64,000 nt of DNA from Patescibacteria group bacterium (GTDB taxonomy: Bacteria > Patescibacteriota > JAQUNI01). Below, in pieces: positions 16,570-32,455 of this stretch (its first letter is position 1; each line of letters starts with the position of its first letter). Under the pieces are notes generated by a model. That model had not been told where the DNA came from. It searched no databases and saw only the letters and a program-made list of their open reading frames with translations. Position numbers and translations under genes: made by a program. Location of the stretch: the NCBI GenBank assembly GCA_028717685.1, contig JAQUNI010000001.1, positions 143,451-207,450 on the forward strand, written 5' to 3'.

Positions 16570-16775
16570 TGTTTTTAAAAAAATGAAACTAAACTTAAGC
16601 GGATAAGCGAGAATATTCGCCTAAAGAATACTCTTGTTTGCACATTCCAATCATAACAAAAAAAAGAGGAAAGGTCAAAAATGGAATTAGGAATAATAAA
16701 AAATGGCTTAATAAAGAATAAGCCATTGAAATTCTACGCCCTTCTTAAGAGGGTGGAATGCACACCTAGCCATCT

Positions 16776-16910
16776 TTATCCTCCGTGTAATATCGCCTTT
16801 GCGAAGTCATCTCCTAAAGAACTCAACATTCCAGGAAATTTTATGCAAATATAGGCAACAGCCGCGATAAAAATTATGATAACAAATCCGATAATAATTT
16901 TCTTCCGCAT
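16776..16910 (-). CDS. Small hydrophobic peptide (44 aa), not in the ORF track
   Basis: MRKKIIIGFVIIIFIAAVAYICIKFPGMLSSLGDDFAKAILHGG, preceded by a strong Shine-Dalgarno (aaaggaggtatattATG). Confidence 0.4.
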   Translation of the reverse strand: MRKKIIIGFVIIIFIAAVAYICIKFPGMLSSLGDDFAKAILHGG

Positions 16911-16989
16911 AATATACCTCCTTTTAGGCACTCTCGCTGATTCAGGTCTCCCAAGCCCATAATATGCAAGTCAACAATCAATTCTTAAT

Positions 16990-17274
16990 CTATCGCTTTA
17001 CCTTTTTTCCGGATGAAAGCCGCGGCGATTCAATTTTTCCGCCCAATTCTTCATAAATTTTAGCAATCGGGCGACCGGGGTTAGTATCATTAAAAGTAAT
17101 ATAAATATCTTCTTCCAGTTCAAAACGAAGCTGGATACCATTATATGACATCTTTGCTTTCTTGCCATTGACAAAACAACCCTTTTCATCAATATGGACT
17201 GTGATTTCAGAGACTGGGAAACTGCCCACAGCAATTCGTTGTGCCTTAAAAGTCGCCTCAAACATCATTCGCAC
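16990..17274 (-). CDS. Hypothetical protein (94 aa)
   Basis: An ORF with good coding context between the small peptide and the GT2 gene. Its stop lies 6 bp from the following GT2 stop-proximal region. Confidence 0.4.
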   Translation of the reverse strand: MRMMFEATFKAQRIAVGSFPVSEITVHIDEKGCFVNGKKAKMSYNGIQLRFELEEDIYITFNDTNPGRPIAKIYEELGGKIESPRLSSGKKVKR

Positions 17275-17283
17275 CTCCCTTAA

Positions 17284-18279
17284 TCACTCAAAAAAACTTC
17301 TGACCTCTCTTGCTTTAACCCTGCGATTTGCCATAATCGCCCGCCGCTTTTTAAAGGCGTGCGGAAGTTGCTTCACTAATTTTAAAAAAGAACCAAACAA
17401 GCGGGGTTCGCGCAATAAAACATAACCCCAGCGCTTCAACTCATACCATAAGATAAAAGGCGAATCTAATAAATAATGCCGCAGAAAATCGTTTTTAACA
17501 AGCATCAAGCTATGATTCTTAAAAGAAAAGTATTTCGCGCGGAAAGAATGCTTTTTCTTCTCTCGCAAAAAATCTTTACCTTTTGCCTGTTCGCCTAAGC
17601 CTGTGCCGCGCTCGTGGTAGGCGATAGCGCGAGGCGCATAGACGCATTTCCAGCCGTATAGATTCATGCGCCACGAGAGATCAATGTCTTCTTTATAATT
17701 TTCAAAATCGCAGTCAAAATATTCGCCGAAGATTCGCACGTCTTGAAGCGCTTTTTTCCGAAAGACAGGCAAAGCGCCTGAAACGCCAAAAACTTGCTCT
17801 TCTTTCCTATATTGCCCCGCGTCAGCTTCACCGTGCCCGCGGTCAATCACGCGGCGGCTTTTAAAAATTTTAAAACCTGTGGAGTCAATAATGTCAGTCT
17901 TTGTTCCATCCTCTTTCATTTGCAATAGTTTACCCGCCAAAGCGCCGACGCGGTCATCCTTCTCCATCACTCCAACCGCGCGCGCAACAAAATCATCTTC
18001 CAAAATGATATCGGGATTCATACAGATCACATATTGACCAGAAGCCTGTCTGATTCCCATATTATGACCCTCGGCATAACCTAGGTTTCTCTTATTGTCA
18101 ATAATCTTAATTTCGCGGAAAATTTTCCGCACAAAATCCACCGAATGATCTTCGGAGCCGTTATCAATAAACACGATTTCCAAATTCGGATAAGTCTGTT
18201 CCAAAACCGAATCAAAAGCTTGCTTTAGATATTTCTTACTGTTCCAACCCAAGAGATTGATGGTGACTTTGGGGTTCAT
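17284..18279 (-). CDS. Family 2 glycosyltransferase
   Basis: 331 aa. Contains VTINLLGWNSKKYLKQAFDSVLEQTYPNLEIVFIDNGSED. Confidence 0.8.
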   Translation of the reverse strand: MNPKVTINLLGWNSKKYLKQAFDSVLEQTYPNLEIVFIDNGSEDHSVDFVRKIFREIKIIDNKRNLGYAEGHNMGIRQASGQYVICMNPDIILEDDFVARAVGVMEKDDRVGALAGKLLQMKEDGTKTDIIDSTGFKIFKSRRVIDRGHGEADAGQYRKEEQVFGVSGALPVFRKKALQDVRIFGEYFDCDFENYKEDIDLSWRMNLYGWKCVYAPRAIAYHERGTGLGEQAKGKDFLREKKKHSFRAKYFSFKNHSLMLVKNDFLRHYLLDSPFILWYELKRWGYVLLREPRLFGSFLKLVKQLPHAFKKRRAIMANRRVKAREVRSFFE

Positions 18280-18317
18280 AGAATTCTAATAAGAAAATGC
18301 ATTAAAGAAGTATGTAT

Positions 18318-18412
18318 AATTCAATCATTGTTTCATTGTTGTTTTATTTTAGCAATGAAACAATGGAGCGAGGGCGAAGCCCGAGCGAGAACAATGAAAC
18401 AATGATTCTGTA
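18318..18412. repeat. TGAAACA-motif inverted repeats (caatcattgtttcattgttg...caatgaaacaatg...aacaatgaaacaatgattc)
   Basis: Same motif as the murC in-frame 8-mer repeat and as 39801-39850. Confidence 0.55.
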
Positions 18413-18414
18413 AA

Positions 18415-19896
18415 TTATTCTTTAGAAATATAAGATGGCGGCTGGTCTATAACTGCCAAAAGGTAAATAGTCAATACGATATGCGCAATCCCGAAACTAG
18501 ACATTAAAAATGGCGAGGTGCCGCCTACAATTAAGAGCGCGATTAAACCCGACAAAAAACCCAGAATGAGCGCTTTTTGCTCTTTTCCTAAATCAAATTT
18601 AAACCAGAGTAGTTTCAAGCCTTTGAAAAATATGCCTAAGATCACGAGACCCCAAAAAGCAAAACCAATAACCCCCCATTTCACGAGCATATCAAGATAT
18701 CCCAATTCAAAAGAATAAGGATCCGCCACCTCGGCCTCGGTGCGATAGACGGGGAAATAGGTTCCAAAACCCGTGCCCCAAAAAGGATGGCGCAGAATAG
18801 AGCCGCCCAAAACCCGCACTTGGGAAACGCGCTCTCCTACCGAAATAGGGTCCTTTTCCACACTTACGCTCGTAGCTAAACGATTAAAGAAAAAATTGGA
18901 AAAAGAGAGATGGAAAAGACCTTGAAAAACAATCTCGGAAATTAAAAACAGAACAATAGCGCCGACTAAAAGTTTAAACCTTTGTTTCCACGATAACCAG
19001 AATAAGAGGAATAGAAGAGCGCCGATAATACCCACCCAAAAACCCCGCGTGTAACTCGCGACAATAGCTAGATACACGAATAAAATAGAAACTAAAACGA
19101 GGTTTCTAATATTCTTGCTTAAGGATGTCGCTCGCGAACGACATCCTAAATGACCGCGAATAAGAATAAAACTGACTAAGAGCAAAAGTCCGATCTGGAT
19201 AAAGACGCCATTGCCTGTAAAAAGCCTGTAAGCTCCGTCCGGCATAATCCCGATCTTCCCGCCATAAAACATCCTAGACAATAAGACCTGTTTTAAAAAC
19301 CAAATATTGATAATACCTAAAGCGGCTAAGAAATATAATAGGGTAAAAATAAAACTCACGGCGACAATAGAAACTAAATAAACTTTGATGAGCTTTTGAC
19401 CTTCAGAATATTTAGGCAAAACGGTAAGTAAAAGAAAAAATAGGATATAAAACAAAAATCCGTTAGCGTCTTTCAGAATATACTCCAAAGGAAAACCATA
19501 AATCCAGCCCAAGAGCCCCCAAAAAATTGGAAAAAAGAAAAAGAGAACTACTAAGGGCTTCGTAAATTTACTCTCTGCTAAAGGCGCCAGACTCACTTTT
19601 TTTCTGTAAATATAGAAAAGCCAAACTAAAATCAAAATTGCAAAAAAGGCGACGCGGATTGAAATTGGTCCTTTGAAATCAAGCCATCTGCCGCCGGCAC
19701 CGCCCAAAACCAATTCCGCAATAAAGACATGCAAAGCATAATCTAATCTGCGCCAAGCCAAAACGAAAAAAACCAAAGCAGTAATAATACTCAAAGGCAA
19801 AATCAAAAATTTCCAGGCGAAGACATTAGCTAAAATTGCTAATATAAAGGCGGTACCCAGAACAAAGATGAGAATTTTATTCAAATGATGAAACAT
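18415..19896 (-). CDS. Polytopic membrane protein, O-antigen ligase/polymerase (Wzy/WaaL)-like
   Basis: 493 aa with about 12 predicted TM helices and a large periplasmic loop, located within a glycosyltransferase locus. Confidence 0.5.
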   Translation of the reverse strand: MFHHLNKILIFVLGTAFILAILANVFAWKFLILPLSIITALVFFVLAWRRLDYALHVFIAELVLGGAGGRWLDFKGPISIRVAFFAILILVWLFYIYRKKVSLAPLAESKFTKPLVVLFFFFPIFWGLLGWIYGFPLEYILKDANGFLFYILFFLLLTVLPKYSEGQKLIKVYLVSIVAVSFIFTLLYFLAALGIINIWFLKQVLLSRMFYGGKIGIMPDGAYRLFTGNGVFIQIGLLLLVSFILIRGHLGCRSRATSLSKNIRNLVLVSILFVYLAIVASYTRGFWVGIIGALLFLLFWLSWKQRFKLLVGAIVLFLISEIVFQGLFHLSFSNFFFNRLATSVSVEKDPISVGERVSQVRVLGGSILRHPFWGTGFGTYFPVYRTEAEVADPYSFELGYLDMLVKWGVIGFAFWGLVILGIFFKGLKLLWFKFDLGKEQKALILGFLSGLIALLIVGGTSPFLMSSFGIAHIVLTIYLLAVIDQPPSYISKE

Positions 19897-19899
19897 AGA

Positions 19900-20028
19900 A
19901 AAATTTTCAATTTTCAGTTTCTAATTTCTATTAAATTTTTAATGAAATAATTTTTAAACAATAAAAAACTACAGCTTAGGAATTAAAAATTAGAAATTTA
20001 ATAAAAATTAATAATTGATCATTGAAAA
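19900..20028. repeat. Family A inverted-repeat element, copy 4
   Basis: The left arm is attttcaattttcagtttctaatttctattaaattttt. The right arm is aattaaaaattagaaatttaataaaaatt. Confidence 0.55.
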
Positions 20029-21360
20029 TTAATCTAAAATCTCTACCAACTTCTTGGTCAAACTTTTGCGTTCAAACTTTATCAACTCACCGTCCGTTAA
20101 TTCATACCTTAATATTCCTCCCCTCTGCCATTCGGAAAACAATTCCCAAAGTTTCTTTTTAATCCCCGCGATGTCCTGCGGTTCTATAATCTCGCCCACT
20201 CCCAGTTGAGTCAAAAAATCACGACAAGCTCCTTGCGGGATAAGAGCTAAAATGGGTTTGCGGGCGCGAAGATGCTCAAAAACCTTGCCGTGGATGTATG
20301 ATGAACGACCGCGCATTGGTCTGTCCACAAGCAAAAGAACATCTGAAATCAAACGATATTGGACAGCCTCTATATGCGGCTTTAAACCCAAAACCTTTAC
20401 CCGCGTACCCAAGCCCGTCCTATGAGCCATCTTTTTCTCTTCCAAAGTTAAATTCCCCAAGAAAAAAACTTGCGTTTTGGCTTTCATCTCGGGGTGTTCT
20501 AAAAAAAGTTCTTTTAATGCCTGCAGAAAATAACGTGGCGTGTTTCCAGGATGCGAATAATAAAAAGCCCCCGTGTGAGAAATAATAAAGTATTTCTCCA
20601 ACCTTTTGAACTTATCCAAATCTCTTTCCGCCAAGATAAAATCCTGCTCGTCATAACCATTGAAAAGGAGTGTGATTTTATCCCTATACTTCTTAAAATA
20701 CTCCCCGACATCTGGCGACGTCACTAAAATTTGATCACAATTCTTGACCACCGCGGTTTCCAAAATTTTTTCTAAGAAAAGGCGAGCAGGGGAGTGGGTT
20801 AAGACTGGTTCCAAGGAATCCAGACACCACCCGTCGCGGAAATCAGCGATCCACTTTACATAAGTGCATCTTTTTAAAAATAAACCGAGCAGGTGAGAGG
20901 TAGCGGGCGGAAAAGAGGACACTACATACTCTACCCTATATTTTTTAATAATCCAAAGGGCGTAAAAAAAAGCAAAAACTAACCAAGTAATCTTGGAATC
21001 CGGGAATAAAAACCAAGTTTTGATGAATTGTTTAATCCTGGCTTGCCAAAAATTGTTCTTAATTTCCGAATAGCCAGCAATATTTTGATTACTTCCTCCC
21101 CCTTCTTTGACTACTAAATTACGCAATTCCCCTGCCCGATACACCAAGGCCTCTTTATCCTCGCGACGTTTTTTCCTGTCCAATCTCTTTGCTAAAGTAA
21201 AGCTCTTCATCCGATCGTAGCGCCGCGAGAAATAAGAAGTAGTTAAAACAATCGGGCACACACCAAAATCCGGCAAATACTTTACGAATTTTTCAATTCT
21301 CTGCGTGCCGGCGTTATTGACTGGAGGATAGTAGTAGGCGAGAAATAAAATATTTTTCAT
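20029..21360 (-). CDS. Glycosyltransferase (GT4/GT-B-like)
   Basis: 443 aa. Starts MKNILFLAYYYPPVNNAGTQRIEKFVKYL, with a C-terminal GT-B half. Confidence 0.7.
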   Translation of the reverse strand: MKNILFLAYYYPPVNNAGTQRIEKFVKYLPDFGVCPIVLTTSYFSRRYDRMKSFTLAKRLDRKKRREDKEALVYRAGELRNLVVKEGGGSNQNIAGYSEIKNNFWQARIKQFIKTWFLFPDSKITWLVFAFFYALWIIKKYRVEYVVSSFPPATSHLLGLFLKRCTYVKWIADFRDGWCLDSLEPVLTHSPARLFLEKILETAVVKNCDQILVTSPDVGEYFKKYRDKITLLFNGYDEQDFILAERDLDKFKRLEKYFIISHTGAFYYSHPGNTPRYFLQALKELFLEHPEMKAKTQVFFLGNLTLEEKKMAHRTGLGTRVKVLGLKPHIEAVQYRLISDVLLLVDRPMRGRSSYIHGKVFEHLRARKPILALIPQGACRDFLTQLGVGEIIEPQDIAGIKKKLWELFSEWQRGGILRYELTDGELIKFERKSLTKKLVEILD

Positions 21361-21361
21361 A

Positions 21362-21517
21362 AGGTGTAAAAATAATTTCCAATTTTCAATTACTAATTTC
21401 TATTAAATTTTCAATTACTTAATTTTTAAACTATTTGCCCCGTTTGGAAATTTTTCATTTCTAACGGCGTTTGAAAATTGATTCATTAAAAATTTAATGA
21501 AAATTAAAAATTAGAAA
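21362..21517. repeat. Family A inverted-repeat element, copy 5, with a family B palindromic core
   Basis: The left arm is aatttccaattttcaattactaatttctattaaatttt. The right arm is aaaaatttaatgaaaattaaaaattagaaattaaaaatt. The core is ccccgtttggaaatttttcatttctaacggcg. Confidence 0.6.
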
Positions 21518-22675
21518 TTAAAAATTTTCACTAATACTTACTGAACTTCTTATAAAATCTTTTGTTATCTTCTCCCAATTAAACTCCGCTTTCACCCTCC
21601 GACGCCCTGCTTCTCCCATCTTCTTCCTTAAATTCTCGTCTTCCAAAAGCTGAATCACCTTGAAAGCTAAATCCTTAGGGTTTTCTGGGTCAACCAAAAA
21701 TCCTGTTTCGCCATCAATAATGGCTTCAGGTATGCCGCCTGATCTGCCGCCAATTACGGGACAACCGCAGGCATTCGCCTCCAAAAAAACCATCCCAAAA
21801 CCTTCCACGTCCTCGCGAATCTGCCTAGAAGGCATCAAAAAAATATCTGCTAAATTGTAAAGGCGGGGTAAATCCGCATCCCGCACAAAACCAATAAACT
21901 CCACCGCTTCTTGAATTCTAGGATCGGAACTTTTTTCTACCATTGCACGCAACCTTGCTTCATCCGGCCCCTTGCCTCCTATAAGATAAATGGTGTTGGG
22001 GAATTTTTCCAAAATCGCGGGCAAAGCGCGAATCACCAAATCAAAACCCTTGCGGCTGACGAGCCGCGAAACCGAAAGAAGAATTTTTTTTTCGGGAGGA
22101 ATATGATATTTTTTCTTCACCTCTGCCGTTGCCAAACCAGACCGGAAACAGCTACCGTCCACTCCCGGATAAATCACGCTAATCTTTTCCGCTGGCAAAC
22201 CCAAAAGTGACATTTCTTCTTTGGTAAAATTGCTGTTCGCGATCCCGCCGGCAGCCTCTTTGTAAATTATCTTCACTAAATAACGCAAAAAACGCGATTT
22301 CCGCATCGCTAAAATATCCAAACCATAAGCCCAGACAAAATAGGGAAGACCCAAAAGCTTTTTTAAAACCCACGCCGCAAGGTAGGAAGCAAAACCATGG
22401 GCGGCTTGCACAAATTCCACTTTCTCTTTTAAGGCAATCCAAAGGCTAAAAAAGGGGGAAACAAGCCATTTTGGTTTGGAAAAACGCGTCTCTAATCCTC
22501 TTCTATAAATCGGATAATTCTGCCATCGGTCAAAATCCCGGCCGAATTCTCTCCTTTTATTCGTTAAGACCACCACTTTCCCTTTTGGCAATCTTTTAAT
22601 GATATTATGCAAACACAACTCAATACCCCCCGTAGCCGGACAAAAAATGGTCGTGATGAATAAATTTTTCCGCAT
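21518..22675 (-). CDS. Family 4 (group 1) glycosyltransferase
   Basis: 385 aa. Contains EGFGMVFLEANACGCPVIGGRSGGIPEAI, a canonical GT4 EX7E region. Confidence 0.85.
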   Translation of the reverse strand: MRKNLFITTIFCPATGGIELCLHNIIKRLPKGKVVVLTNKRREFGRDFDRWQNYPIYRRGLETRFSKPKWLVSPFFSLWIALKEKVEFVQAAHGFASYLAAWVLKKLLGLPYFVWAYGLDILAMRKSRFLRYLVKIIYKEAAGGIANSNFTKEEMSLLGLPAEKISVIYPGVDGSCFRSGLATAEVKKKYHIPPEKKILLSVSRLVSRKGFDLVIRALPAILEKFPNTIYLIGGKGPDEARLRAMVEKSSDPRIQEAVEFIGFVRDADLPRLYNLADIFLMPSRQIREDVEGFGMVFLEANACGCPVIGGRSGGIPEAIIDGETGFLVDPENPKDLAFKVIQLLEDENLRKKMGEAGRRRVKAEFNWEKITKDFIRSSVSISENF

Positions 22676-22847
22676 AAAAAAATGGCTTCAAGATTAACGA
22701 GATAAAAAATCCATTTTTGAAAATATCTATATTTTTGCCTAATAATACAATAAATACAAAAAAATTGCAATCTATTTGACCTATTATTGCAATTAGAGAA
22801 ATGCTTCAAAAAAAATTGATCAGCAATAGGGGACTAGTTCCTCTCCC

Positions 22848-23549
22848 CTACGCCTTGCTAATTTTAATTTTTGCAAAAGTCCTTTCTTGCTCCGCAATCA
22901 CCTCTTGACGGCGCAAAAGCTCTAAAAGCGCCAAAAAACTCACAATCTGCCCTAACCTATCCCCCGTCTTGTTCAGGCTTCCCAGGGTCACTTTCATTCG
23001 GCTCTCCAAGCACATTTTAATAAAATCAATTTTTTCCCGAACGGAAATACTTTTTCTTAAAGTTCCCTCCTCTAACTTCTCCTCTTCCTCTAAAAAATGC
23101 TCGATCATATTAGCATAAATATTGGCTAAGCGGCTGGCTGAAAATTTTAATGGCGGGGAAAAACAAACCTTACGCGAAAACCAAACATTACGGATTAGGC
23201 TGTACTCTCCCCTACTCTCTAATTTTTTGAGCTCCCCTGCTAAAAATTTGTATTTTTGATAAATATTAAGCCTCTGTTTCAATTCCTCAATATCTTCCTC
23301 TTCTTCGTTCGTCAATTCCAAATCAGGCAGAATTTCTTTGGATTTTAATAAAAGCAATCTCGCCGCTACGACTAAAAACTCCGAGAGTTGCTCGGGATTC
23401 ACTTTGCGATTCTCAATGTAGGCTAAATATTGATCCGCTATCTTGGCTAAAGAAATGTCTGTAATCTTCAGCCTTTCATCTTCAATCAACTGCAGCAGCA
23501 AATCTAGCGGACCTTGAAATTTCTCCAGCTGAAAATGGTATGGGCGCAT
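22848..23549 (-). CDS. scpA: Segregation and condensation protein A
   Basis: 233 aa. Starts MRPYHFQLEKFQGPLDLLLQLIEDERLKITDISLAKIADQYL, the ScpA N-terminus. Confidence 0.85.
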   Translation of the reverse strand: MRPYHFQLEKFQGPLDLLLQLIEDERLKITDISLAKIADQYLAYIENRKVNPEQLSEFLVVAARLLLLKSKEILPDLELTNEEEEDIEELKQRLNIYQKYKFLAGELKKLESRGEYSLIRNVWFSRKVCFSPPLKFSASRLANIYANMIEHFLEEEEKLEEGTLRKSISVREKIDFIKMCLESRMKVTLGSLNKTGDRLGQIVSFLALLELLRRQEVIAEQERTFAKIKISKA

Positions 23550-23585
23550 TGATATTTATCCCCCACCAATTGGTATAGATAGAGG

Positions 23586-24077
23586 TTATCTTGCTTTTGA
23601 AAACAAACCCTCAACTGGCTTTTCAATCTTGCGGTAAACCGAAGCGGTAATTTTGATTGCTTCTTCAAAACTACCAGCGTTTAAAATAATCTTTTTATTT
23701 TTAAGCAATAATTTATCAATGTAGGTTTTCTGTTTATAAAGCGAACCGAAGGGAACAAGGGTACCGGCTTTTTTGGTGATCTTCATTTTAATCTGCGCCT
23801 CACTGGCAATTTTCAGCTTCTGGCAAGCCCGCTCGCCCATTTTCTTCCGCTCGGCATTAATAAGTTTTTTGAGCCTCATAATATCCAAACGACGGTTTCC
23901 TGGCACTACCGCGAATATAAATTCCGTATCTGCCCGTACCAGTAAAGTTTTGGCAATCTCTTTTAAATCCGCGCGCAAGGTTTGGGCAAGGTCAAATGTC
24001 GTATAAACGGTTTTATGCGGCATTAACTTATAAACCGCCTTTGATTTTTTTAGAAAATTTTCTAGACGTTTGAGCAT
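23586..24077 (-). CDS. Hypothetical protein, possibly a YbaK/ProX-type aminoacyl-tRNA deacylase fold
   Basis: 163 aa. The assignment rests on weak overall similarity from memory only. Confidence 0.35.
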   Translation of the reverse strand: MLKRLENFLKKSKAVYKLMPHKTVYTTFDLAQTLRADLKEIAKTLLVRADTEFIFAVVPGNRRLDIMRLKKLINAERKKMGERACQKLKIASEAQIKMKITKKAGTLVPFGSLYKQKTYIDKLLLKNKKIILNAGSFEEAIKITASVYRKIEKPVEGLFSKAR

Positions 24078-24084
24078 AGATGTA

Positions 24085-24245
24085 TGATTAAAATTATTCT
24101 AATTGACCTAATTATTCTAATTATTCTAAAAAATGACCAATGTCCAAGCACCAATGAATCAATTAATAACAGAATTAGGTAATTGGGATTTAGTTATTAG
24201 GATTTATTTAGGTTAATTAGAACAATTAGAATAATTAGAATAATT
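24085..24245. repeat. Family E nonamer array element (AGAATAATT / AGGTTAATT units in inverted arms)
   Basis: aattattctaattgacctaattattctaattattctaa ... ttaggttaattagaacaattagaataattagaataatt. A second copy is at 40455-40590. Confidence 0.6.
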
Positions 24246-24246
24246 T

Positions 24247-25644
24247 TTATTTCACAATCTTTAAATGTAATTCCCTCAGTTGTTTAGTGTCCACTTCATT
24301 CGGCGCGTCCATCACTGCCGTTGTCCCCTTTCCTGTGGTAGGAAACGGAATCATCTCCCGAATGTTTTTTTCAGCCATTAACACCATTAAAAGCCGATCC
24401 AGCCCAGCGGCAATCCCCCCGTGCGGCGGGACGCCATATTCAAAAGATTGCAACAGATGCCCAAACCTTTCCTCAATATCCCCGCTCTTGTAGCCTAAAA
24501 GTTCAAAAACGCGCTTCAAAATTTTGGGGTCAGTAGTGCGGATTGATCCTCCAAAAACCTCATTGCCGTTTAAAGCTAAATCATATTGCAACGCCCTAAT
24601 CCGAGCCAAATCTTTCCCCTCTTTTAATAGGTCTAAATCCGCGGTGTGAATAGCGGTAAAAGGGTGATGTTGCGGTCCCCAAGCTTTTTCCTCTTTGTGA
24701 TATTCAAACATCGGGAAGTCGTAAATCCAAGCAAAAGCCATTTTGCCGCTCTCGGGATCGCGCCGCAAATCCGGCTTGTCAGATTTATATTTCTTCATTG
24801 CCTCTTGGTAAGGAATGCGCGGAAAAGGAATTTCCTGGATTTCCTTTTTAAGAACACCCTCTGTGAAGCCAATCATTAATTCTTCAGTCAAATTCAAAAT
24901 ATCTTCTTGGTCGCAAAAAGACATCTCAATATCTAATTGCGTAAATTCCAGCAAACGATCCGCCCTTAAATCTTCATCCCTAAAACAGCGCGGAAATTGA
25001 AAATATTTTTCCACGCCTGCAACCATCAAAAGCTGCTTGTATTGCTGGGGGGACTGGGGAAGAGCGTAAAATTTCCCAGGGTGCAAACGGCTTGGCACTA
25101 AAAAATCCCGCGCGCCTTCCGGCGTAGATTTGGTCAGAATCGGAGTTTCAATCTCCAAAAATCCCTTTTTCTTTAAAAAGGCGCGGATATAATCTACGGC
25201 TTTTGCCCGCTTTTTAAGAATCTTTAGCACCCTCTCTCTGCGCATATCCAGATAACGATATTTCAGCCGCAAATCCTCTTTCACCTCTCTGCCATCATCT
25301 GTCACCTCAAAAGGCAGGGTCCGGCTTGCGGACAGAATATGAATCGCGCTCGCTTCTACTTCAATCTCGCCCGTTTTTAAATTCGGATTAACTAACTTTT
25401 CCGGCCGCCTGTTCACCTTGCCCTTTACCTGCAATACAAACTCCGGCCGCGCGCCTTCCGCAATTTTGTGCGCCTCTCTTGATACCTCCGGATTCACAAC
25501 TACCTGCACCAATCCTTCTTTATCGCGCAAATCTAAAAAAATTAATTTTCCGTGGTCTCGCCGAGCGTGCACAAAGCCAGCTAAAGTTACTTCTTTGCCT
25601 TCCTCTTTTTTAGACAATAATCCGCAATAATGATCTTTAAGCAT
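24247..25644 (-). CDS. aspS: Aspartyl-tRNA synthetase, short form lacking the bacterial GAD insertion (likely non-discriminating)
   Basis: Has an OB-fold N-terminus and class II motifs, with FTQLDIEMSF diagnostic of AspRS. The ORF extends to 25767, but MLKDHYCG at 25644 is preceded by ggtataatcatt and a purine-rich stretch. Confidence 0.85.
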   Translation of the reverse strand: MLKDHYCGLLSKKEEGKEVTLAGFVHARRDHGKLIFLDLRDKEGLVQVVVNPEVSREAHKIAEGARPEFVLQVKGKVNRRPEKLVNPNLKTGEIEVEASAIHILSASRTLPFEVTDDGREVKEDLRLKYRYLDMRRERVLKILKKRAKAVDYIRAFLKKKGFLEIETPILTKSTPEGARDFLVPSRLHPGKFYALPQSPQQYKQLLMVAGVEKYFQFPRCFRDEDLRADRLLEFTQLDIEMSFCDQEDILNLTEELMIGFTEGVLKKEIQEIPFPRIPYQEAMKKYKSDKPDLRRDPESGKMAFAWIYDFPMFEYHKEEKAWGPQHHPFTAIHTADLDLLKEGKDLARIRALQYDLALNGNEVFGGSIRTTDPKILKRVFELLGYKSGDIEERFGHLLQSFEYGVPPHGGIAAGLDRLLMVLMAEKNIREMIPFPTTGKGTTAVMDAPNEVDTKQLRELHLKIVK

Positions 25645-25763
25645 AATGATTATACCCCTCTCCTTGCCAAGGGGAGATTTAGGAGGGGTCTTTATCATTT
25701 TTATTTTACCATAAAAAAAAATCTTTGAAAATAAAAAAGAGGCAATGCAAATTGCCTCAAGTT

Positions 25764-26048
25764 TCAAGAAAATAAATCCTCAATCTTCTTTTTCACTTCA
25801 TCAATATTACCCATGCAATAGAAGCAGGATTTAAAGAGTGATTCATGTTTTTCAAAATCTGAATTTGTCTTCAATTTTTCTATAACATTATCCTTATCGG
25901 AATAAATTCGACAGAAAGCGCCGTCTGAATTACCCCATTGGAAAAGAACCATGTCATTATCTCTAAGATTTATAGCAACTTCTACCAACTGGTTGACAAC
26001 TAAAATTTTTACAGCCATTTTAATCTCCTTTATGATAAATATCTCCAA
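25764..26048 (-). CDS. Hypothetical protein (94 aa)
   Basis: ORF only. It overlaps the aspS N-terminal extension by 4 nt if the long start is used. Confidence 0.35.
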   Translation of the reverse strand: MEIFIIKEIKMAVKILVVNQLVEVAINLRDNDMVLFQWGNSDGAFCRIYSDKDNVIEKLKTNSDFEKHESLFKSCFYCMGNIDEVKKKIEDLFS

Positions 26049-26307
26049 TAACCCAGCTTCTAGTTAGACTAACGAAGATGCCTTTTGTATCATTATAGAT
26101 AAAAAATCATACTACAAAATAAAGGACAATAAACAATCCTAACAATAATTCGTAATTTTGTCAAATAAAAAATCACTACAAGATTGACTGCAAGGTTTAA
26201 TAAAGCAGGGATAATAATTATGGATCCAATAGGAGGAAATAGGCTAATCTACGAAGGGACTATATAAAAAGCAAATCTCACATTAAAATTAATGTGAGTT
26301 TTTTATC

Positions 26308-26347
26308 TTTAAAAAACTAACCCTTAAGGGCGAGGGTTAGTCTTCCA
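26308..26347 (-). terminator. Terminator hairpin downstream of the giant gene (32-bp direct repeat, copy 1)
   Basis: The minus strand reads ctaaccctcgcccttaagggttag followed by TTTTTT. The 32 bp at 26316-26347 are identical to 30582-30613. Confidence 0.6.
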
Positions 26348-26464
26348 TGCGCACTTTAAGGCGGATTTTAATTAGCGGATTTGTTGTTTTAATTAAGGAT
26401 AGACCAGTATTTTCGGACTCTAATAACTGCCAATCTGCCAGAAGAAGGTGGCATCTTAATATCT

Positions 26465-29400
26465 TTAATCTTCGCCTTTCTTTTCTCCCCCTTCTTTGAT
26501 TATCCACCAATTAAATTCCGTATCTTCTGACACTTCTTCCAGAGCAGAAACGGTAAAACTTTTCTCGCCCACTTCAGACAAATAAATAAATGTGGAAGAT
26601 AGTGGGGTTATACCAATAAATGAATCTTTGGTTACTTCCTCATTCTCAAAAACTGCGTCTTTTTTTCCTGCTTCAATAACACCTGTGCCTGTGATTATAT
26701 TGGTTATCTTACCTACAACCTCTAAATCACCTTTCACCACCACTTTCGGTTCGGGCACAGTGTCATTTGCTTCCCCGGGATTCAATTCCAGAATGCCAGT
26801 TTCCGAGAGAATCCTGCCCGAAACAAGCTTTAGCTCCCCTTTCACCTTTACATTCCCGTCCTTATCTACCGCGAAGTTCTCGCTATTAATCTCTAAGCCT
26901 GTGGCAGCATCCAGAACAAGGTATTTGTTGGGGTCGCCGATTATTACTTTGTCCTCCACAATCTTTACAATCTGCTGTAAATTCTGTGTTTCTTCTTCTA
27001 GTTCTTGAATCCTGGCGGTATTCGCTTGGTTGGATTCCATTACTGTTAAAATAGAGGCGCTTAAAGTGTTTAATTGATTGGAGACATTCTCCAGATTGCT
27101 CAAACTGTCTACTAGGGTTTGGAGGGTGCTTTGCAGTGATTCTAGATCAACTTGCTCGGAAGAAGCCCCCTCTACCATTTGTGCTGGCGCTGTGTCAGCA
27201 TCATTTTCCGTAATTTGTGATTCGTAATTCGTAATTCGGGTCTCCAGATCCTGAATCCTTGATTCTTGATCTTTGATTCTTGATTCTAAAGACAGAATTC
27301 CTGATTCCTGATTCCCTATCCCTAATTCCAAGCCAGTGAGACGCGAGGTCGTGTCGCCCGCGGAAATACCAAGTTCATTCTGCACTAATTGCATATTATC
27401 ATCTATGACCGATAGCTTTTGCTGCTGCTCCTTGAGCACCTCATTCTGATAAAGGGAGATCCGTTCATATTTGATTGCGTCAGGTCTGCCTTGCTCGTCA
27501 TATATTACAAGGTTAGAAAGGCCTAAAGCGTCAAATTCTTCGGCAATAAAGCCGACATCCCTCTTTCCTGTTGCTTTATCAATAAAGGAGGTAGGTCTTG
27601 CTTCTAGAATCTTGGTAAAGTCATCTTGCAGGGTCTGCACATCATCTTTGTATCGCAAAGAGGAAGTAGAACGGTAGACACTGCCCGTGGTCGTATCAAT
27701 AAACATATTGGCGGCGGAAGCGGAAGTGTCTATATTTGCAATGACAAACTTGGTGCCAGGGGCGCTCGTGCCGATACCGATCGCGCCCGTGGAGGTAATC
27801 ACGAAGGCGGGCGTTGCCCCACCTAAAGTAGCAGCAGTTTCAATCTTGAATTTATCGCTATCGCTGTCATCAACTCCCACGGAGAATTTAGTAGAATCAG
27901 CAATTTTAAAGTCTAAAATAGGATCACCAGAAGCTTTATTTAAAGAAAGAAGATTGTCTGGCGTGCTCGTCCCGATGCCGACGTTTCCGCTCATTATGGA
28001 CATCCCGCCTTGATAGATATGATTAGTTGACACAACATTCATTTCAGATTTGCCAGAGGTCATTACTTGGTGTGTGCCACCACTCCAATTCCAAGACACG
28101 GCGACAAACAAACCATTGCCATAGGTTACTGACATCCACCAATTTGATTCGGGCGCGGTTCTAGTTGTCCAGGTGATGCCATCGGGTGAAGTCATTACTC
28201 GGTTAGTGTCAGTTAGACCAACGGCGACAAACAAACCATTGCCATAGGTTACTGAATTCCAAGAATCTGCTACTGCGGTTCTAGCTGTCCAGGTGATACC
28301 ATCAGGCGAAGTCATTACTCGGTGTGTGCCACTGTGACCAACTGCCACAAACAAACCATTGCCATAAGTTACTGCATACCACGTATTTGCTTCGGCTGCG
28401 GTTCTAGCTGTCCAGGTAATGCCATCGGGCGAAGTCATTACCCGGTTGGTGCCATTATAAGCGACGGCGACAAACAAACCATTGCCATAGGTTACTGAAT
28501 ACCACGAATTTGCTTCGGGCGCGGTTCGGGCTGTCCAAGTGATGCCGTCAGGCGAAGTCATTACTCGGTGTGTGCCGCTGTAAGCAACTGCGACAAACAA
28601 GCCATTGCCATAAGTTACTCCTTCCCATTTATTTGCTTCGGCCGCGGTTCGGGCTGTCCAAGTGATGCCATCAGGAGAAGTCATTACTCGGTGTGTGCCA
28701 GTTTCAGCGACTGCCACGAATAAACCATTGCCATAAGTGACCCAATTCCACCCATTTGCTTCGGCTGCAGTTCGGGCTGTCCAGGTGATGCCATCGGGCG
28801 AAGTCATTACTCGGTTGGTGCCATTATAAGAGACGGCGACAAACAAGCCATTGCCATAAGCTACCCCATTCCACGTATTTGCTTCGGTCGCGGTTCGGGC
28901 TATCCAGGAAGTTCCTTTGGATATGATGTTGCCAACAACTTCTAACTTCTCGCCTGGTGTTGTCGTCCCCACCCCAAGCCTGTTATTCGTGTCATCCCAG
29001 TAAAAATTAGCGTTATCTTGAGCCAGCGCGCCTGCGGCATCAGTGAAAACCACCGAGCCTTGGGTAAAACCAGGGGTAATGGTGCCGATAACATTGCCAT
29101 AGATTGTGCCGTCAACCTCTAAAACATCCTCTACATAGAGGTCTCCGTCTCCTGTGGCATAATTCACTGTTCCGCCATTGCCAATAAAGACGTTGCGGTT
29201 AAACCAAGCGTCTTGATGGACGCGCAGAGTGCCTGCTGTTTCCACATCCCCTGTTTTGCCGTTAACAATAAATTTGTCATCGTCTATGTAGATTCCGCCA
29301 TTTGCCTCTAGAATGCCGGTGAGCTTGGTCTGACCATCTACGGTAAGATTATTGTAAAGATGGGCATCTTTAATCACAATCAGTTCTTGACCGACTTTTA

Positions 29401-30409
29401 CATTACCTGCTACATCAAGCTTATGCTGGGGGTATTTAGTGCCAATGCCTACTTGATCATTAGTAGTATCAACATAGAGAGCCTTTGTTCCGACCGTGAA
29501 GTTGCCCCCAACATCCACACTCTTTTGCAATTCAGTTGACCCTTTAACTTCAATACCACTACCAAAATATACTTTCCCAAGCAGGCTCAAGTCCTGTGAT
29601 GTGCTGGCACCGTTAGTGGTAACATTCTGTAAATTGATATTATTGGAAGAGGCATTAGAGACTATCTTGGGGATAGAGTCGCCTAAAACAATCTCTGAAG
29701 ATGGATGGGATTCCGATGTTTGTTCCGTAGGGGAAGAGGCTTGCGGTTTAATCTTGCTGTTTAAGGCTAGATCGTCTGTTTGAAGATTATGGATTATGGA
29801 TCCTGTATTTTGGTCAACATTTTTTAGTAAACTACTAAATACTTTTAATGGGAAATATCCTCTTTCCGCAGAAACACCTCTCACAAAAACCAGAGTATTG
29901 GCGAAAAGGACTATGAGGATCAAAAGAGTTAAGAAAACGGGTCTAAAACGAGGAGGCGGAACAACAAATCTGGACCAAAAGGACAACGATGGTTTTAGGT
30001 TTTTCAGGATTTTATTCTTGAAAACGGATTTGAAGCGGAGCAATGTGGAAGATGATTCAGATTGGGGGGATAACAATAATTTCAGGTCTTCAAAAACTTT
30101 GAAGCTCTTGATTGGCGCCTTTACCCTGTTAGACAGTAACCCCCTTAAAGCCTCTGGTCTCTTACGGAATAAACATCTAATGGAGCCAGGGCAGTTTGTT
30201 AGCCCCGTTAGAAATAAATTTCTAAACGGGGTTAGAGAACAAGGTTCTCTAACGGGGTTTACTGACCCTAACGGTTTACAGGTGAAACCGAGAGCAAGAC
30301 ATCGGGAGCGTATCTTAAACATAAGATGAGAATATTTTTTATGAATACAAAACCCACCCCTTGAAAACAGAGAAATAATTTTTGAAACTATAGGGCTTTT
30401 TGTTTGCAT
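26465..30409 (-). CDS. Giant cell-surface protein. Layout: N-terminal signal anchor, ~7 Asp-box-like beta-propeller repeats, GIGT tail-fibre-like motifs, Peptidase_S74-like intramolecular chaperone domain, C-terminal coiled coil
   Basis: 1314-aa ORF. It contains repeats of ~40 aa (NRVMTSPDGITWTARTAAEANxWxxVTYGNGLFVAV), GIGT motifs (VGIGTKYPQHKLDVAGNV, IGIGTSAPGTKFVIA), a chaperone-like segment (SLRYKDDVQTL...GFIAEEFDALGLSNLVIYDEQG) and heptad-rich ESRI repeats. A family B repeat at 30203-30258 lies inside the 5' end of the ORF, so the true start is probably downstream, for example TTG 29987 or TTG 29923 just before the VFLTLLILIVLFANTLVFV anchor. Confidence 0.7.
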   Translation of the reverse strand: MQTKSPIVSKIISLFSRGGFCIHKKYSHLMFKIRSRCLALGFTCKPLGSVNPVREPCSLTPFRNLFLTGLTNCPGSIRCLFRKRPEALRGLLSNRVKAPIKSFKVFEDLKLLLSPQSESSSTLLRFKSVFKNKILKNLKPSLSFWSRFVVPPPRFRPVFLTLLILIVLFANTLVFVRGVSAERGYFPLKVFSSLLKNVDQNTGSIIHNLQTDDLALNSKIKPQASSPTEQTSESHPSSEIVLGDSIPKIVSNASSNNINLQNVTTNGASTSQDLSLLGKVYFGSGIEVKGSTELQKSVDVGGNFTVGTKALYVDTTNDQVGIGTKYPQHKLDVAGNVKVGQELIVIKDAHLYNNLTVDGQTKLTGILEANGGIYIDDDKFIVNGKTGDVETAGTLRVHQDAWFNRNVFIGNGGTVNYATGDGDLYVEDVLEVDGTIYGNVIGTITPGFTQGSVVFTDAAGALAQDNANFYWDDTNNRLGVGTTTPGEKLEVVGNIISKGTSWIARTATEANTWNGVAYGNGLFVAVSYNGTNRVMTSPDGITWTARTAAEANGWNWVTYGNGLFVAVAETGTHRVMTSPDGITWTARTAAEANKWEGVTYGNGLFVAVAYSGTHRVMTSPDGITWTARTAPEANSWYSVTYGNGLFVAVAYNGTNRVMTSPDGITWTARTAAEANTWYAVTYGNGLFVAVGHSGTHRVMTSPDGITWTARTAVADSWNSVTYGNGLFVAVGLTDTNRVMTSPDGITWTTRTAPESNWWMSVTYGNGLFVAVSWNWSGGTHQVMTSGKSEMNVVSTNHIYQGGMSIMSGNVGIGTSTPDNLLSLNKASGDPILDFKIADSTKFSVGVDDSDSDKFKIETAATLGGATPAFVITSTGAIGIGTSAPGTKFVIANIDTSASAANMFIDTTTGSVYRSTSSLRYKDDVQTLQDDFTKILEARPTSFIDKATGKRDVGFIAEEFDALGLSNLVIYDEQGRPDAIKYERISLYQNEVLKEQQQKLSVIDDNMQLVQNELGISAGDTTSRLTGLELGIGNQESGILSLESRIKDQESRIQDLETRITNYESQITENDADTAPAQMVEGASSEQVDLESLQSTLQTLVDSLSNLENVSNQLNTLSASILTVMESNQANTARIQELEEETQNLQQIVKIVEDKVIIGDPNKYLVLDAATGLEINSENFAVDKDGNVKVKGELKLVSGRILSETGILELNPGEANDTVPEPKVVVKGDLEVVGKITNIITGTGVIEAGKKDAVFENEEVTKDSFIGITPLSSTFIYLSEVGEKSFTVSALEEVSEDTEFNWWIIKEGGEKKGED
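30203..30258. repeat. Family B palindromic unit (CCCCGTTAGAAAT-aaa-ATTTCTAAACGGGG + TTAGAGAAC-aa-GGTTCTCTAACGGGG)
   Basis: Two adjacent perfect hairpins. Copies or relatives lie at 48381-48427, 8997-9105, 21436-21470 and 56204-56240. Confidence 0.65.
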
Positions 30410-30581
30410 TTTGGGAGATATGAATTCCGTATCGGTTTCTAGCTTTTATACTAAAAAATTGAGAGAGTAAGTCTCTACTGAAAATCTCCTAGTAGATTTA
30501 CTGGTTTAAGTACATTACTATTATATAATACCTCCCCCCACTCGTTTTTACAAGAATGTTATCCACAAAGTAATATAAAAG

Positions 30582-30613
30582 ACTAACCCTTAAGGGCGAG
30601 GGTTAGTCTTCCA
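30582..30613 (-). terminator. 32-bp direct repeat copy 2 (same hairpin), downstream of the FG-GAP/L,D-transpeptidase gene
   Basis: actaacccttaagggcgagggttagtcttcca is identical to 26316-26347. On the minus strand the hairpin is followed by tcttttat. Confidence 0.5.
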
Positions 30614-30868
30614 CCGCGTTTTAGTTTGAATTTTTTAGGCGCGGACTGCCTCTCATTTTTAGGCAGCGACGCCTGTTAAATTTTACGGTGGCGGAGAAAC
30701 CACGTCTTTCGCGTTCCCGACGTCACCGTAAAATTATTCTATGCACTCTTTCATCTTAATAAATACATCAAATTTTTGTTTCTTAATTTTTAATTTTTAA
30801 CTAATTTTTATTTACTTAATTTTTATTGTTATTATAAATAAAACAATAATTCAATAACTAAATAAAAA

Positions 30869-32455
30869 TTAGTCTTGAACAATTACCGGCGTTCCTATTG
30901 CCGCCCAATCGTAAAGCTGTTTAGCCGGTCCCACACCGAGGCGCACGCAGCCATGAGAAACGCGCACACCTAAATGATTAGCCCCTTCCTTATAACCGCC
31001 CGGCCATTCGGGCAATTCATGAATGCCATGACCTTTAGTAGTAAAAGCCATCCAATAGGGCATATATAACCCATATTTAGAAGACCAGGCGCGCGGATTT
31101 TTACTTAAAATGTGAAAATTACCCAAGGGAGTGCCCATACCAGGCCGACCTGTAGATACCTTAGTGTCTAAAAATATTTTCTCTCCTTCATAAGCCTTCA
31201 AATTTTGCTCTGAAATGTCAATCACAATCTTCTTTAAACCATTGAAATTGTAGTTCAAAGCAGGCAAGATAATAATTTCCGCAATATGATCGCCATCTAA
31301 ATCTGCCGCCGCCAGGTTCACCCCGCCATTAAAATTCTTTTCAAAAGGATAATAACTGTAACCAGTCTGGTTCATCGCTTGGGAGCTAACGCCACTCACC
31401 AGACTTGGTTCCTTAAGATTACCTCCCACCCCCTCCTTTCTCCCCGCTCCGGGCAAGGGGAGAGCCGCTCCCATTCTCTCTTTTTCAGAATCAGTATCTT
31501 CTTGCGCGATTTTCACCCCGCCGATATTATAAGGGGAACTCTTCTGAATCTCGCCCAAGTGATTGAACGCCCGCACATGCGGCGCGCCGCCCGGACCAGC
31601 GCCAGCCAAAATCTCACTCTTGCCGTCAAAATTCAAATCCGCCGCGGCGATATCCACGCCGCCCTTGAAACCTTGATCAAAGGCGATGAAGCTGGATTCT
31701 AAAAGGCCATTACTCTTATATACTTTAATCTGGGCTTTATCCTGACGCGCGGCAGAAACGATAATCTCCGGAAGTTTATCTCCGTCCACATCCGCCGCGG
31801 CGATATCCACGCCACCCTTGAAGTCGCGCGGAAAAGGATAAAGGACAAAATCAGTCCGCGTACCATTTCCTTTAAAAACACGCACCTCGGAGCGCGTACC
31901 CTGCCCTCGCGAAACCAAAATTTCCGCATTATGATCGCCGTCTAAATCCGCAAGGGCAATGTGCACGCCGCCCCGAAACGCCGCTGGTTCTCCAAAAAAA
32001 TCCGCTAAAACAGTTTTGTTTAGGTCTGCCTTGTAAACCTTGATATGGGCGCTCTCGCGGGAAGCAACCGCCACCGCAATTTCATCCTTTTGGTCGCCAT
32101 TAACATCCCCACAAGCCACATCAACGCCTCCCAAAAATTCTGCGTCAAAAGGATAGATTACATAATTGGTCTTTTTGCCTCGATAGTCATAAACGCGCAC
32201 TTCGCTTCTCCGACCCGGTCCTGAACCAATCACAATTTCCTTATGACCATCACCATTTAGATCCCCCACGCAAACCGAAACCCCGCCGCGGAAATCATTT
32301 TCAAATAAATTAAAATCCTGGCCTTGTTTAAGGTCCACAGCTTTGAAAATACGACCGAGACCAAAATAATCGCGAGCCTCTACACTTTTTAATGGCCCAA
32401 AAATCATTCCTGACATTAAAACTGCCGTAAAAATTATTGTTTTTGTTTTTGTCAT
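30869..32455 (-). CDS. Secreted FG-GAP repeat beta-propeller protein fused to a C-terminal L,D-transpeptidase (YkuD) catalytic domain
   Basis: 528 aa with a signal peptide. Six or more FG-GAP-like repeats are present (GDLNGDGHKEIVIGSG, ADLDGDHNAEILVS, ADVDGDKLPEIIVSA, ADLNFDGKSEILAGAG, ADLDGDHIAEIIIL). The C-terminal HGIHELP...GVRVSHGCVRL contains the LDT active-site His and Cys motif. Confidence 0.8.
   Translation of the reverse strand: MTKTKTIIFTAVLMSGMIFGPLKSVEARDYFGLGRIFKAVDLKQGQDFNLFENDFRGGVSVCVGDLNGDGHKEIVIGSGPGRRSEVRVYDYRGKKTNYVIYPFDAEFLGGVDVACGDVNGDQKDEIAVAVASRESAHIKVYKADLNKTVLADFFGEPAAFRGGVHIALADLDGDHNAEILVSRGQGTRSEVRVFKGNGTRTDFVLYPFPRDFKGGVDIAAADVDGDKLPEIIVSAARQDKAQIKVYKSNGLLESSFIAFDQGFKGGVDIAAADLNFDGKSEILAGAGPGGAPHVRAFNHLGEIQKSSPYNIGGVKIAQEDTDSEKERMGAALPLPGAGRKEGVGGNLKEPSLVSGVSSQAMNQTGYSYYPFEKNFNGGVNLAAADLDGDHIAEIIILPALNYNFNGLKKIVIDISEQNLKAYEGEKIFLDTKVSTGRPGMGTPLGNFHILSKNPRAWSSKYGLYMPYWMAFTTKGHGIHELPEWPGGYKEGANHLGVRVSHGCVRLGVGPAKQLYDWAAIGTPVIVQD

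Follow-up and report, generated by a model that had tools for sequence, protein, structure and literature searches.

The closest known analogue of the protein described here is the Peptidase_S74 (S74) subgroup of the mosaic adhesive trimer (MAT) proteins, which form surface fibers on Bdellovibrio bacteriovorus (Caulton et al. 2024, PMC10769870). Thirteen of the 21 MAT fibers end in an S74 domain; self-cleavage and a surface location have been shown for the members tested, with an S782A control for the S74 cut, and one member binds prey glycans (PMC10769870). MAT proteins possess a signal peptide and a conserved β-rich N-terminal domain of ~130 residues, and the capping loops on their trimeric β-helix or prism units follow the consensus V-G-G/N-pi-x-x-P-x-x-x-L (PMC10769870). 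Our subject is a single gene in a stretch of 64,000 nucleotides (the window; positions 143,451 to 207,450 of contig JAQUNI010000001.1, assembly GCA_028717685.1) from a Patescibacteria group bacterium, a Candidate Phyla Radiation (CPR) member related to Doudnabacteria. We think it probable, though with real reservations, that the gene encodes an exported homotrimeric surface fiber or adhesin, probably anchored in the membrane, assembled from phage receptor-binding modules and cut by its own S74 domain.

Like the MAT fibers, the window protein is chromosomally encoded, predicted to lie on the cell surface, phage-tail-fiber-like, and found in a bacterium that lives on other bacteria. It too has an S74 domain with an S-x4-K dyad and mosaic, exchangeable distal parts, and its repeated GIGT motifs are similar to the capping-loop consensus. 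The two also differ. Between VG and P, the GIGT motif of the window protein has one residue more than the MAT consensus; the N-terminus of the protein consists of a basic region and a hydrophobic anchor; S74 is terminal in MAT fibers, whereas ~300 residues follow it here (a coiled coil and a tailspike-type sandwich); and the window protein adds a seven-bladed propeller. Because the N-termini differ, and because the comparison outside S74 is by description only, the window fiber is not a demonstrated MAT member.

Phage fibers and tailspikes (K1F endosialidase, T5 pb1, the S16 long tail fiber) have S74 domains homologous by profile to that of the window protein, and in both cases attachment is at the N-terminus, with the C-terminus distal. 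The window protein differs in being, by prediction, anchored on a cell rather than mounted on a virion. In K1F endosialidase the domains are ordered propeller, stalk, S74; the window propeller has seven blades and is not sialidase-like, and its S74 is not terminal. MYRF (myelin regulatory factor) likewise carries its S74 domain, there called the ICA domain, inside the protein and ahead of a long C-terminal extension. Cleavage of MYRF frees an N-terminal transcription factor from a C-terminal membrane anchor. In the window protein the anchor is N-terminal and S74 is predicted to be extracellular, so that a cut would release the C-terminal part.

The open reading frame (ORF) spans 26465–30409 on the minus strand, with 1314 codons including the stop. 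The original prediction, made from the sequence without database searches, had listed for a 1314-residue ORF a set of Asp-box-like repeats, GIGT motifs, a chaperone-like segment and a coiled coil; all are present, but the strand must be corrected to minus and the start codon is ambiguous, the candidates being M1, M30, TTG142 and TTG163. The same protein has been deposited from a 722-kb contig as 'MAG: hypothetical protein PHW01_00890 [Patescibacteria group bacterium]'; in that record the start lies 162 codons further in, which gives 1152 residues. Its parts are as follows.

26465–30409, minus strand: full fiber ORF, equivalent to NCBI PHW01_00890 with a longer N-terminus
29942–30409, minus strand: very basic region, residues 1–156, from composition and comparison with the related gene L001
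29882–29938, minus strand: hydrophobic segment, residues 158–176, mean Kyte-Doolittle value 2.84
29176–29854, minus strand: proximal fiber, residues 186–412, with the first GIGT motif; conserved 5′ module shared with L001
28052–28912, minus strand: seven-bladed Asp-box β-propeller, residues 500–786, from repeats and AlphaFold2
27665–28051, minus strand: stalk between propeller and S74, residues 787–915, with two GIGT motifs, from translation and a phage match
27380–27664, minus strand: Peptidase_S74 intramolecular chaperone/autoprotease, residues 916–1010, from Pfam and profile comparison
26975–27352, minus strand: two heptad coiled-coil segments (ESRI-type), residues 1020–1145, from the heptad pattern
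26708–26974, minus strand: β-rich segment, residues 1146–1234, conserved in the C-terminal family; low-confidence monomer model
26489–26707, minus strand: terminal β-sandwich, residues 1235–1307, ending FNWWI; fold match to phage tailspike C-terminal domains

The segment GFIAEEF...LVIYDEQG, likened in the original prediction to the self-cleaving S74 chaperone, lies at residues 953–973, and the likeness is borne out. The isolated domain matches PF13884 marginally (22.8 bits against a cutoff of 22, E 1.1e-4) over profile positions 1–56 of 58, and the same family is matched by all 21 aligned homologues. A phmmer search of the PDB with the full-length protein gave chance matches only. A profile of the 21 homologues finds the solved S74 domains of the phage S16 long tail fiber (6f45, 8e-16), 8jov (7e-13), MYRF (7dc3, 1.3e-8) and T5 pb1 (8hqz, 1.6e-4). 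Ser916, Lys921, Gly953, Ala956 and Tyr981 are invariant in the 21 sequences. The first two have the S-x4-K spacing and align with SDRRIK, SDERLK and SGIEYK of solved S74 proteins; Ser916 is the predicted scissile, nucleophilic residue and Lys921 the predicted base.

What had been read as about seven Asp-box-like repeats of ~40 residues are seven units of 41 residues, with YGNG at residues 518, 559, 600, 641, 682, 722 and 763. Each contains YGNGLFVAV, six of the seven have the Asp-box SPDGITW, and at the DNA level they form a 123-nt tandem family that is 84–87% identical. AlphaFold2, run on residues 486–800 with an alignment of eight rows, folds them into a closed propeller of 28 strands in seven four-stranded blades (predicted local distance difference test, pLDDT, 89.5; predicted template modeling score, pTM, 0.88). 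The best solved structural matches are Ycf48 (E 2e-12, TM ~0.7), designed symmetric propellers, Kelch and WD40. Motif, closed model and best match together mark an Asp-box (BNR) propeller, which in Pfam has no BNR or PSII_BNR match and only a weak one to EPTP. With Ycf48 and the phage 'BNR/ycf48-like' propellers it shares the seven-bladed fold and the position of the Asp-box in the hairpin of strands 3 and 4; its sequence is only 15% identical to Ycf48, and its blades are far more uniform than those of Ycf48-type propellers, which suggests recent amplification. The same module is found by tblastn in jumbo phages and cyanophages at no more than 47.7% identity, in genes annotated as tail fiber, baseplate wedge, ycf48-like or BNR protein; the propeller modules of the structural proteins of these phages are 35–48% identical to that of the window.

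Variation between blades is limited to the segments EANxWxx and AVxxxGTx. By convention the D–A and B–C loops form the top, ligand-binding face of a propeller, and the variable segments would correspond to these loops. The G+C content at window positions 28001–30000, which overlap the propeller repeats and the fiber, is 46.6% against ~40% in the flanks; this could reflect amino-acid composition or foreign origin.

Four GIGT-type motifs, where three or four had been expected, can be read in the translation, of the form V/I/L-G-I/V-G-T-x-x-P-x-x-x-L: VGIGTKYPQHKL (320–331), LGVGTTTPGEKL (478–489), VGIGTSTPDNLL (810–821) and IGIGTSAPGTKF (877–888). The last two lie in the stalk, and residues 808–1006 are 30% identical to the tail fiber of Synechococcus phage S-B28. 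The stalk is presumably a trimeric β-helix or prism, and would form the tip exposed after cleavage. Two homologues, P0036 and P0038, contain an intein (precomputed Pfam PF14890; sequence C...VAHN), which sits right behind a GIGT/GVGT-type motif in a presumably extracellular fiber. A fiber protein seems an unusual host for an intein.

The long heptad coiled coil noted earlier exists, as segments at ~1020–1062 and ~1080–1145 separated by an acidic Pro/Gly linker (1063–1079), but it is not the end of the protein: ~170 residues lie beyond it. In a monomer AlphaFold2 model of this C-terminal module, residues 1140–1234 are uninformative (pLDDT <50), and the β-rich segment at 1146–1234 is presumed to be trimeric. 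Only residues 1235–1307 are modeled with confidence, as a small β-sandwich (pLDDT 82–95). Its matches in BFVD are pectate-lyase tailspikes and K1-lyase_C proteins, and its fold resembles that of the tailspike C-terminal domain (Pfam K1-lyase_C, PF24146; Pam1, K1 lyase, LKA1 gp49); the window protein itself has no Pfam K1-lyase_C match. It differs from these tailspikes in following a coiled coil and S74 rather than a β-helix. Fiber, propeller, S74 and terminal sandwich all have phage tail-fiber or tailspike relatives, and the architecture resembles, as had been proposed, that of a phage receptor-binding protein; the terminal sandwich goes beyond what had been noticed, as does the internal module swap described below.

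The C-terminal module belongs to a large family. A word-indexed search with the last 175 residues gave one protein, and an exhaustive HMMER search with the alignment of the module was required to reach 4172 clusters (50% identity), of which 1680 have E<=1e-10. The 150 representatives listed are proteins of 150–5587 residues, and every one of them has the module at its extreme C-terminus. S74 occurs in 28 of 84 long representatives, at a median of 371 residues from the end. Domain scans of ten representatives found S74 in four, the Peptidase_G2 chaperone domain in two, and K1-lyase_C in six (two above the curated cut-off). From these frequencies and scans, the succession of S74, coiled coil and tailspike-type sandwich recurs and is not an accident of one gene. 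The few members whose source is named come from Patescibacteria lineages. The family has no annotation in the libraries searched, and no description of it was found in the literature; some relatives of the fiber are already named 'tail fiber domain-containing protein' at NCBI.

Export is predicted from the N-terminus. Residues 1–155 contain 29 Lys and Arg against 5 Asp and Glu; residues 158–176 are the single strongly hydrophobic segment of the protein and are followed by VSA|ER; and the remainder, the ectodomain, is acidic. Residues 158–176 may serve as a signal anchor (N-in, C-out), or they may form the core of a signal peptide that is cut off at VSA|ER; on either account the bulk of the protein is predicted to lie outside the cell. 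The frame from M1 is open in L001 too, and another relative, P0015, likewise begins MKTK...HKK. Between the window and L001, substitutions in residues 30–156 are even across codon positions (15/17/16), whereas those in residues 186–412 have the coding pattern of purifying selection (48/25/94). Residues 1–156 are thus either a weakly constrained cytoplasmic tail or in part a 5′ leader. Two adjacent hairpins occur at 30180–30262 on the minus strand, in codons 50–77: GTTAGAGAAC-CTT-GTTCTCTAAC, then CCCCGTTTAGAAAT...TTTCTAACGGGG (inverted repeat I6). L001 has the first of them, with an altered loop. The hairpins and the even spread of substitutions over codon positions suggest that part of the 'N-terminus' is possibly a structured 5′ leader.

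Where the window protein has this basic, poorly constrained region, many homologues (P0002, P0014, P0023, P0030, P0033, P0036, P0044, P0056) have an N-terminal helix-turn-helix (HTH) domain of the HTH_17/MerR DNA-binding type, on the N-terminal side of the membrane segment; some of these proteins bear the name 'MerR family transcriptional regulator'. In them a DNA-binding domain in the cytoplasm is joined through a single membrane segment to a very large ectodomain, a layout presumably comparable to that of ToxR-like one-component membrane sensors.

Comparison with the β-helix-type gene P0005 (L001) reveals that the window gene is a mosaic. The relevant features, with those that bound the gene, are these.

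26442–29175, minus strand: swapped-in distal module, residues 413–1314, the stop and 23 nt beyond; no nucleotide similarity to L001, flanks similar
26420–26452, minus strand: relic of the displaced 3′ end, reading ATFFWQIGSY and stop, after the real stop; compared with the ends of P0005 and P0016
26358–26419, minus strand: 3′ untranslated region (UTR) conserved with the P0005-type gene, from blastn
30525–30553, minus strand: sigma-70-like promoter match TTGTAA-17-TATTAT, a consensus match only, ~115 nt upstream of M1 and within the inserted unit
26310–26347, minus strand: downstream 38-nt hairpin copy, stem-loop and TTTTTT on the coding strand; right boundary of the insertion/deletion
30576–30613, minus strand: upstream hairpin copy, terminator-like 3′ end of a structured element; left boundary of the insertion/deletion

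Over codons 1–412 the L001 gene has 81% and 73% nucleotide identity to the window, and it has no nucleotide match at all to codons 413–1314. The match resumes at 81% over 84 nt (26358–26441), starting 24 nt past the window stop and covering most of the relic. P0005 and P0016 end ATFSWQIGSY and stop, one residue different from the relic. The matching 5′ module and 3′ UTR, the unmatched middle and the relic together indicate that the distal 2.7 kb was recombined in; judged from these sequences, the swap displaced a β-helix (depolymerase-like) end and left ten of its codons behind. The pattern of a retained 5′ part, a replaced 3′ part and a downstream remnant of the old end resembles tip swapping in phages, which exchange tail-fiber tips and keep the proximal part, and the Rhs/CDI polymorphic toxin loci, with their displaced 'orphan' C-terminal modules. 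No toxin or immunity genes are present here, and the likeness to Rhs/CDI is confined to the pattern of recombination.

A related arrangement is seen in L003, where an orphan ORF of 84 residues (7487–7741) comes directly after the P0015 fiber gene and matches the final 79 residues of P0016 at 87% identity. By this resemblance the ORF is a tailspike-type end domain that has been displaced, like the ten-codon relic in the window but larger.

The gene is also a presence/absence cassette. Identical 32-bp hairpin repeats had been reported at both of its ends; there are indeed 32 contiguous identical bases, but the full repeat is 38 nt with one mismatch. Within the 64-kb window, the part of the source genome that the count covers, there are two copies only, where none is expected by chance, and both look like intrinsic terminators on the coding strand. 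When GTDB representatives and JGI metagenomes were scanned, the hairpin core appeared in one other public genome, a Doudnabacteria metagenome-assembled genome. Its 40,877-bp contig is syntenic with window positions 15943–26035, at 85–95% amino-acid identity over 10 kb, and reads flank, single hairpin, flank, with no fiber gene between. From this single-hairpin junction, the one empty site sampled, the intervening 4266 bp (promoter-like site, fiber gene, 3′ relic and one hairpin copy) are an insertion/deletion polymorphism bounded by a direct repeat, and the supposition that the hairpins delimit a cassette is upheld. This is compatible with two routes: a circle carrying one hairpin may have integrated, in a Campbell-type or site-specific event, or the relative may have lost the unit by loop-out deletion between two hairpins. 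The loci of P0015 and P0016 lie in other genomic contexts without the hairpin.

An integron attC site was considered for the hairpin and rejected. The repeat is 38 nt with a simple stem of 9–16 bp, against at least 55 nt with R''/L''/L'/R' boxes for attC, and its ends GACTAAC and GTTAGTC are each one base off the consensus RYYYAAC/GTTRRRY. No integrase or recombinase family was found among the 39 ORFs scanned against Pfam across the window.

Trimerization, cleavage, surface display and adhesion are proposed here by analogy with the known behavior of S74 proteins. Segment 158–176 would leave all that follows it in the chain outside the cell. Three chains would be aligned by the coiled coil and the S74 chaperone, which would also template the folding of the stalk just upstream; Ser916, activated by Lys921, would then cut the chain, and a fragment of ~400 residues (S74, coiled coil and tailspike-type sandwich) would leave the mature fiber. 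What remained would display three seven-bladed propellers and a β-helical tip, suited to multivalent ligand binding, probably to glycans on the surface of the host (basibiont). The limitation of blade variation to two segments that would be top-face loops fits such binding. In the genome the gene is an accessory cassette in which the distal, putatively receptor-binding part was exchanged and the anchor and proximal fiber were retained, much as phages swap tips.

Several points weigh against this proposal. PF13884 scores 18.1 bits on the whole protein, under the cutoff of 22. The residue after the catalytic serine is Ser, where Asp is usual; T5 pb1, which is said to cleave itself, has Gly there. 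S74 is internal, with ~300 residues after it, where the usual position in phage proteins is the extreme C-terminus. Since the first 156 codons show no coding-type substitution pattern, the fiber may instead be a secreted protein whose signal peptide is cut off, and not an anchored one. We infer the oligomeric state and the cleavage, the link between the fiber protein and a host cell is plausible by analogy, and literature searches gave no CPR fiber of this type. Finally, to discard 30% of the protein, including its conserved tailspike-type end, looks wasteful; the C-terminal fragment may thus have a role of its own, and the conservation of its ~400 residues suggests one beyond chaperoning.

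One alternative, which we judge unlikely while taking it seriously, is that S74 is only a trimerization chaperone without release, or that the released trimer of S74, coiled coil and sandwich is the functional piece, with the sandwich as distal binder or cap and the propellers as accessories. Phage fibers with transient chaperone 'caps' have been described (PMC10579305). The terminal position of the module in every listed representative and the retention of ~370 residues between S74 and the end speak for this alternative, as does the sandwich itself, which is the terminal domain of real tailspikes and also ends β-helix-type paralogues that lack S74. To our knowledge, however, cleavage separates off the C-terminal part in all characterized S74 proteins (K1F, T5, MYRF). 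In Bd3182 it splits the C-terminal part from the mature fiber (PMC10769870). The strict conservation of the Ser–Lys dyad and of the S74 core residues in the window family argues that cleavage has been retained. A surface glycan-degrading enzyme, endosialidase- or depolymerase-like and with a catalytic propeller, is brought to mind by the order of propeller, stalk and S74, which parallels that of K1F endosialidase, by the Asp-boxes, which are typical of sialidases, and by the pectate-lyase-type β-helices of P0005, P0015 and P0016 at the same kind of locus. We consider it very improbable. The propeller has seven blades and not six; with blades so nearly identical, there are no catalytic residues particular to one blade; the top 50 structural matches of the model include no sialidase; and no glycoside-hydrolase family in Pfam or NCBIfam is matched by the protein. 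A sialidase of the K1F type was rejected on these grounds, and the likeness to endosialidase is confined to the chaperone domain, the nearest structural match of the propeller being Ycf48.

Two further explanations concern the setting of the gene. That every distal module has phage homologues, and that the gene lies in an insertion/deletion bounded by direct repeats, might indicate a leftover tail-fiber gene of a prophage, tailocin or other phage-derived particle. No phage structural or lysis family occurs among the 39 scanned ORFs, which are housekeeping or envelope genes or have no Pfam match, in keeping with the housekeeping region first supposed. The inserted unit holds the fiber gene only, a hydrophobic segment for export or anchoring lies in the N-terminal part of the protein, and the 5′ module of the gene is common to other CPR cellular proteins, many of them with a cytoplasmic HTH. 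A prophage or tailocin origin was rejected for these reasons and can be given very little credence; the suggestion of a domesticated tail fiber, in the sense of recent prophage capture, is disfavored because the N-terminal anchor and proximal fiber are shared with CPR proteins and because the unit is a single gene. It is also conceivable, although we rate it as rather improbable, that the protein is an extracellular fiber that is not adhesive: an envelope spacer, a glycocalyx scaffold, or a decoy for phages of the CPR cell. The neighborhood is rich in envelope genes (FG-GAP/YkuD transpeptidase, glycosyltransferases, Wzy-like ligase), and phage pressure would also give fast turnover of modules. 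Against this, the modules are those of receptor-binding proteins, variation in the predicted ligand-face loops suits recognition better than scaffolding, and the bacterial precedent that has been tested, the Bdellovibrio MAT fiber, is adhesive.

If the protein is a surface adhesin, as we favor, a role in episymbiosis is plausible by analogy. How the ultrasmall CPR bacteria find and hold their host cells is largely unexplained, and the locus offers a testable candidate; papers on CPR bacteria implicate type IV pili. A strain-variable cassette with swapped binding ends is the genomic signature expected of host-range determinants, and with this architecture the MAT precedent would reach a further lineage, unrelated to Bdellovibrio, whose members live on other bacteria. 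Literature searches gave no paper joining Patescibacteria with S74, endosialidase, tailspike or intramolecular-chaperone terms, and a few CPR papers mention 'tail fiber'. What is new here is that an internal S74 is combined with a long coiled coil and a tailspike-type end domain, that a propeller is predicted inside a fiber on a cell, that the undescribed family sharing the C-terminal module is so large, and that a CPR genome gives direct evidence for the gain or loss of a cassette and for the replacement of a tip. As a speculation, and one we would call doubtful, CPR episymbionts may change host specificity in the manner of phages, with a one-gene cassette moving in and out at the terminator hairpin of a small structured RNA, with tips replaced by recombination and orphan tips left over, and with the cut-off C-terminal fragment functional. 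If so, the released trimeric coiled-coil and lectin-like fragment would be, for example, a transient cap or a secreted factor, and the 4172-cluster family would represent a host-recognition repertoire of Patescibacteria.

Around the cassette, the window encodes cell wall and division proteins (MurB, MurC, MurG, FtsW, a penicillin-binding protein, MraW), glycosyltransferases and a Wzy-like ligase, the chaperones HrcA, GrpE, DnaK and DnaJ, the metabolic enzymes enolase and iPGM, and ScpA, a YbaK-like editing protein and AspRS. The FG-GAP/YkuD transpeptidase gene and a V/A-type ATPase operon stand upstream of the fiber gene. The immediate neighbor (30869–32455, minus strand) fuses FG-GAP/VCBS-type repeats to a YkuD L,D-transpeptidase domain and probably encodes a further protein of the envelope whose repeats are of the adhesion type.

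A conserved, structured non-coding element (30583–30772, minus strand) separates the L,D-transpeptidase gene from the cassette, with three strong stem-loops and the upstream hairpin as terminator (minimum free energy -71.2 kcal/mol, z = -6.1). The Doudnabacteria relative has it at 85% identity behind another upstream gene, and two substitutions there preserve pairs as G–U, on the minus strand only. At gathering thresholds Rfam identifies only two tRNAs in the window; near the upstream hairpin there is a weak match to sot0042 (21.9 bits against a gathering threshold of 88). We regard the element as a candidate small RNA. The gene that adjoins this RNA-like element in the relative (L002 / L005 12789–12946) ends ...HLWARGYFVSTIGITDNIIRAYIQRQ, which may resemble the C-terminus of an IS200/IS605 TnpA transposase.

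On the other side of the cassette, window positions 26181–26267 (plus strand) retain a relic of the last 28 codons (RLTARFNKAGIIIMDPIGGNRLIYEGTI and stop) of a 420-residue gene that is intact in L005 (11260–12522) and is presumably a Gfo/Idh/MocA-like oxidoreductase. The terminator hairpin of the relic, at 26277–26298, has one compensatory base-pair change between the two genomes. Beside the relic and its terminator (26181–26298), the window has lost ~2.3 kb relative to L005, including two small ORFs; this loss and the relic mark the gap between AspRS and the hairpin as a zone of repeated rearrangement.

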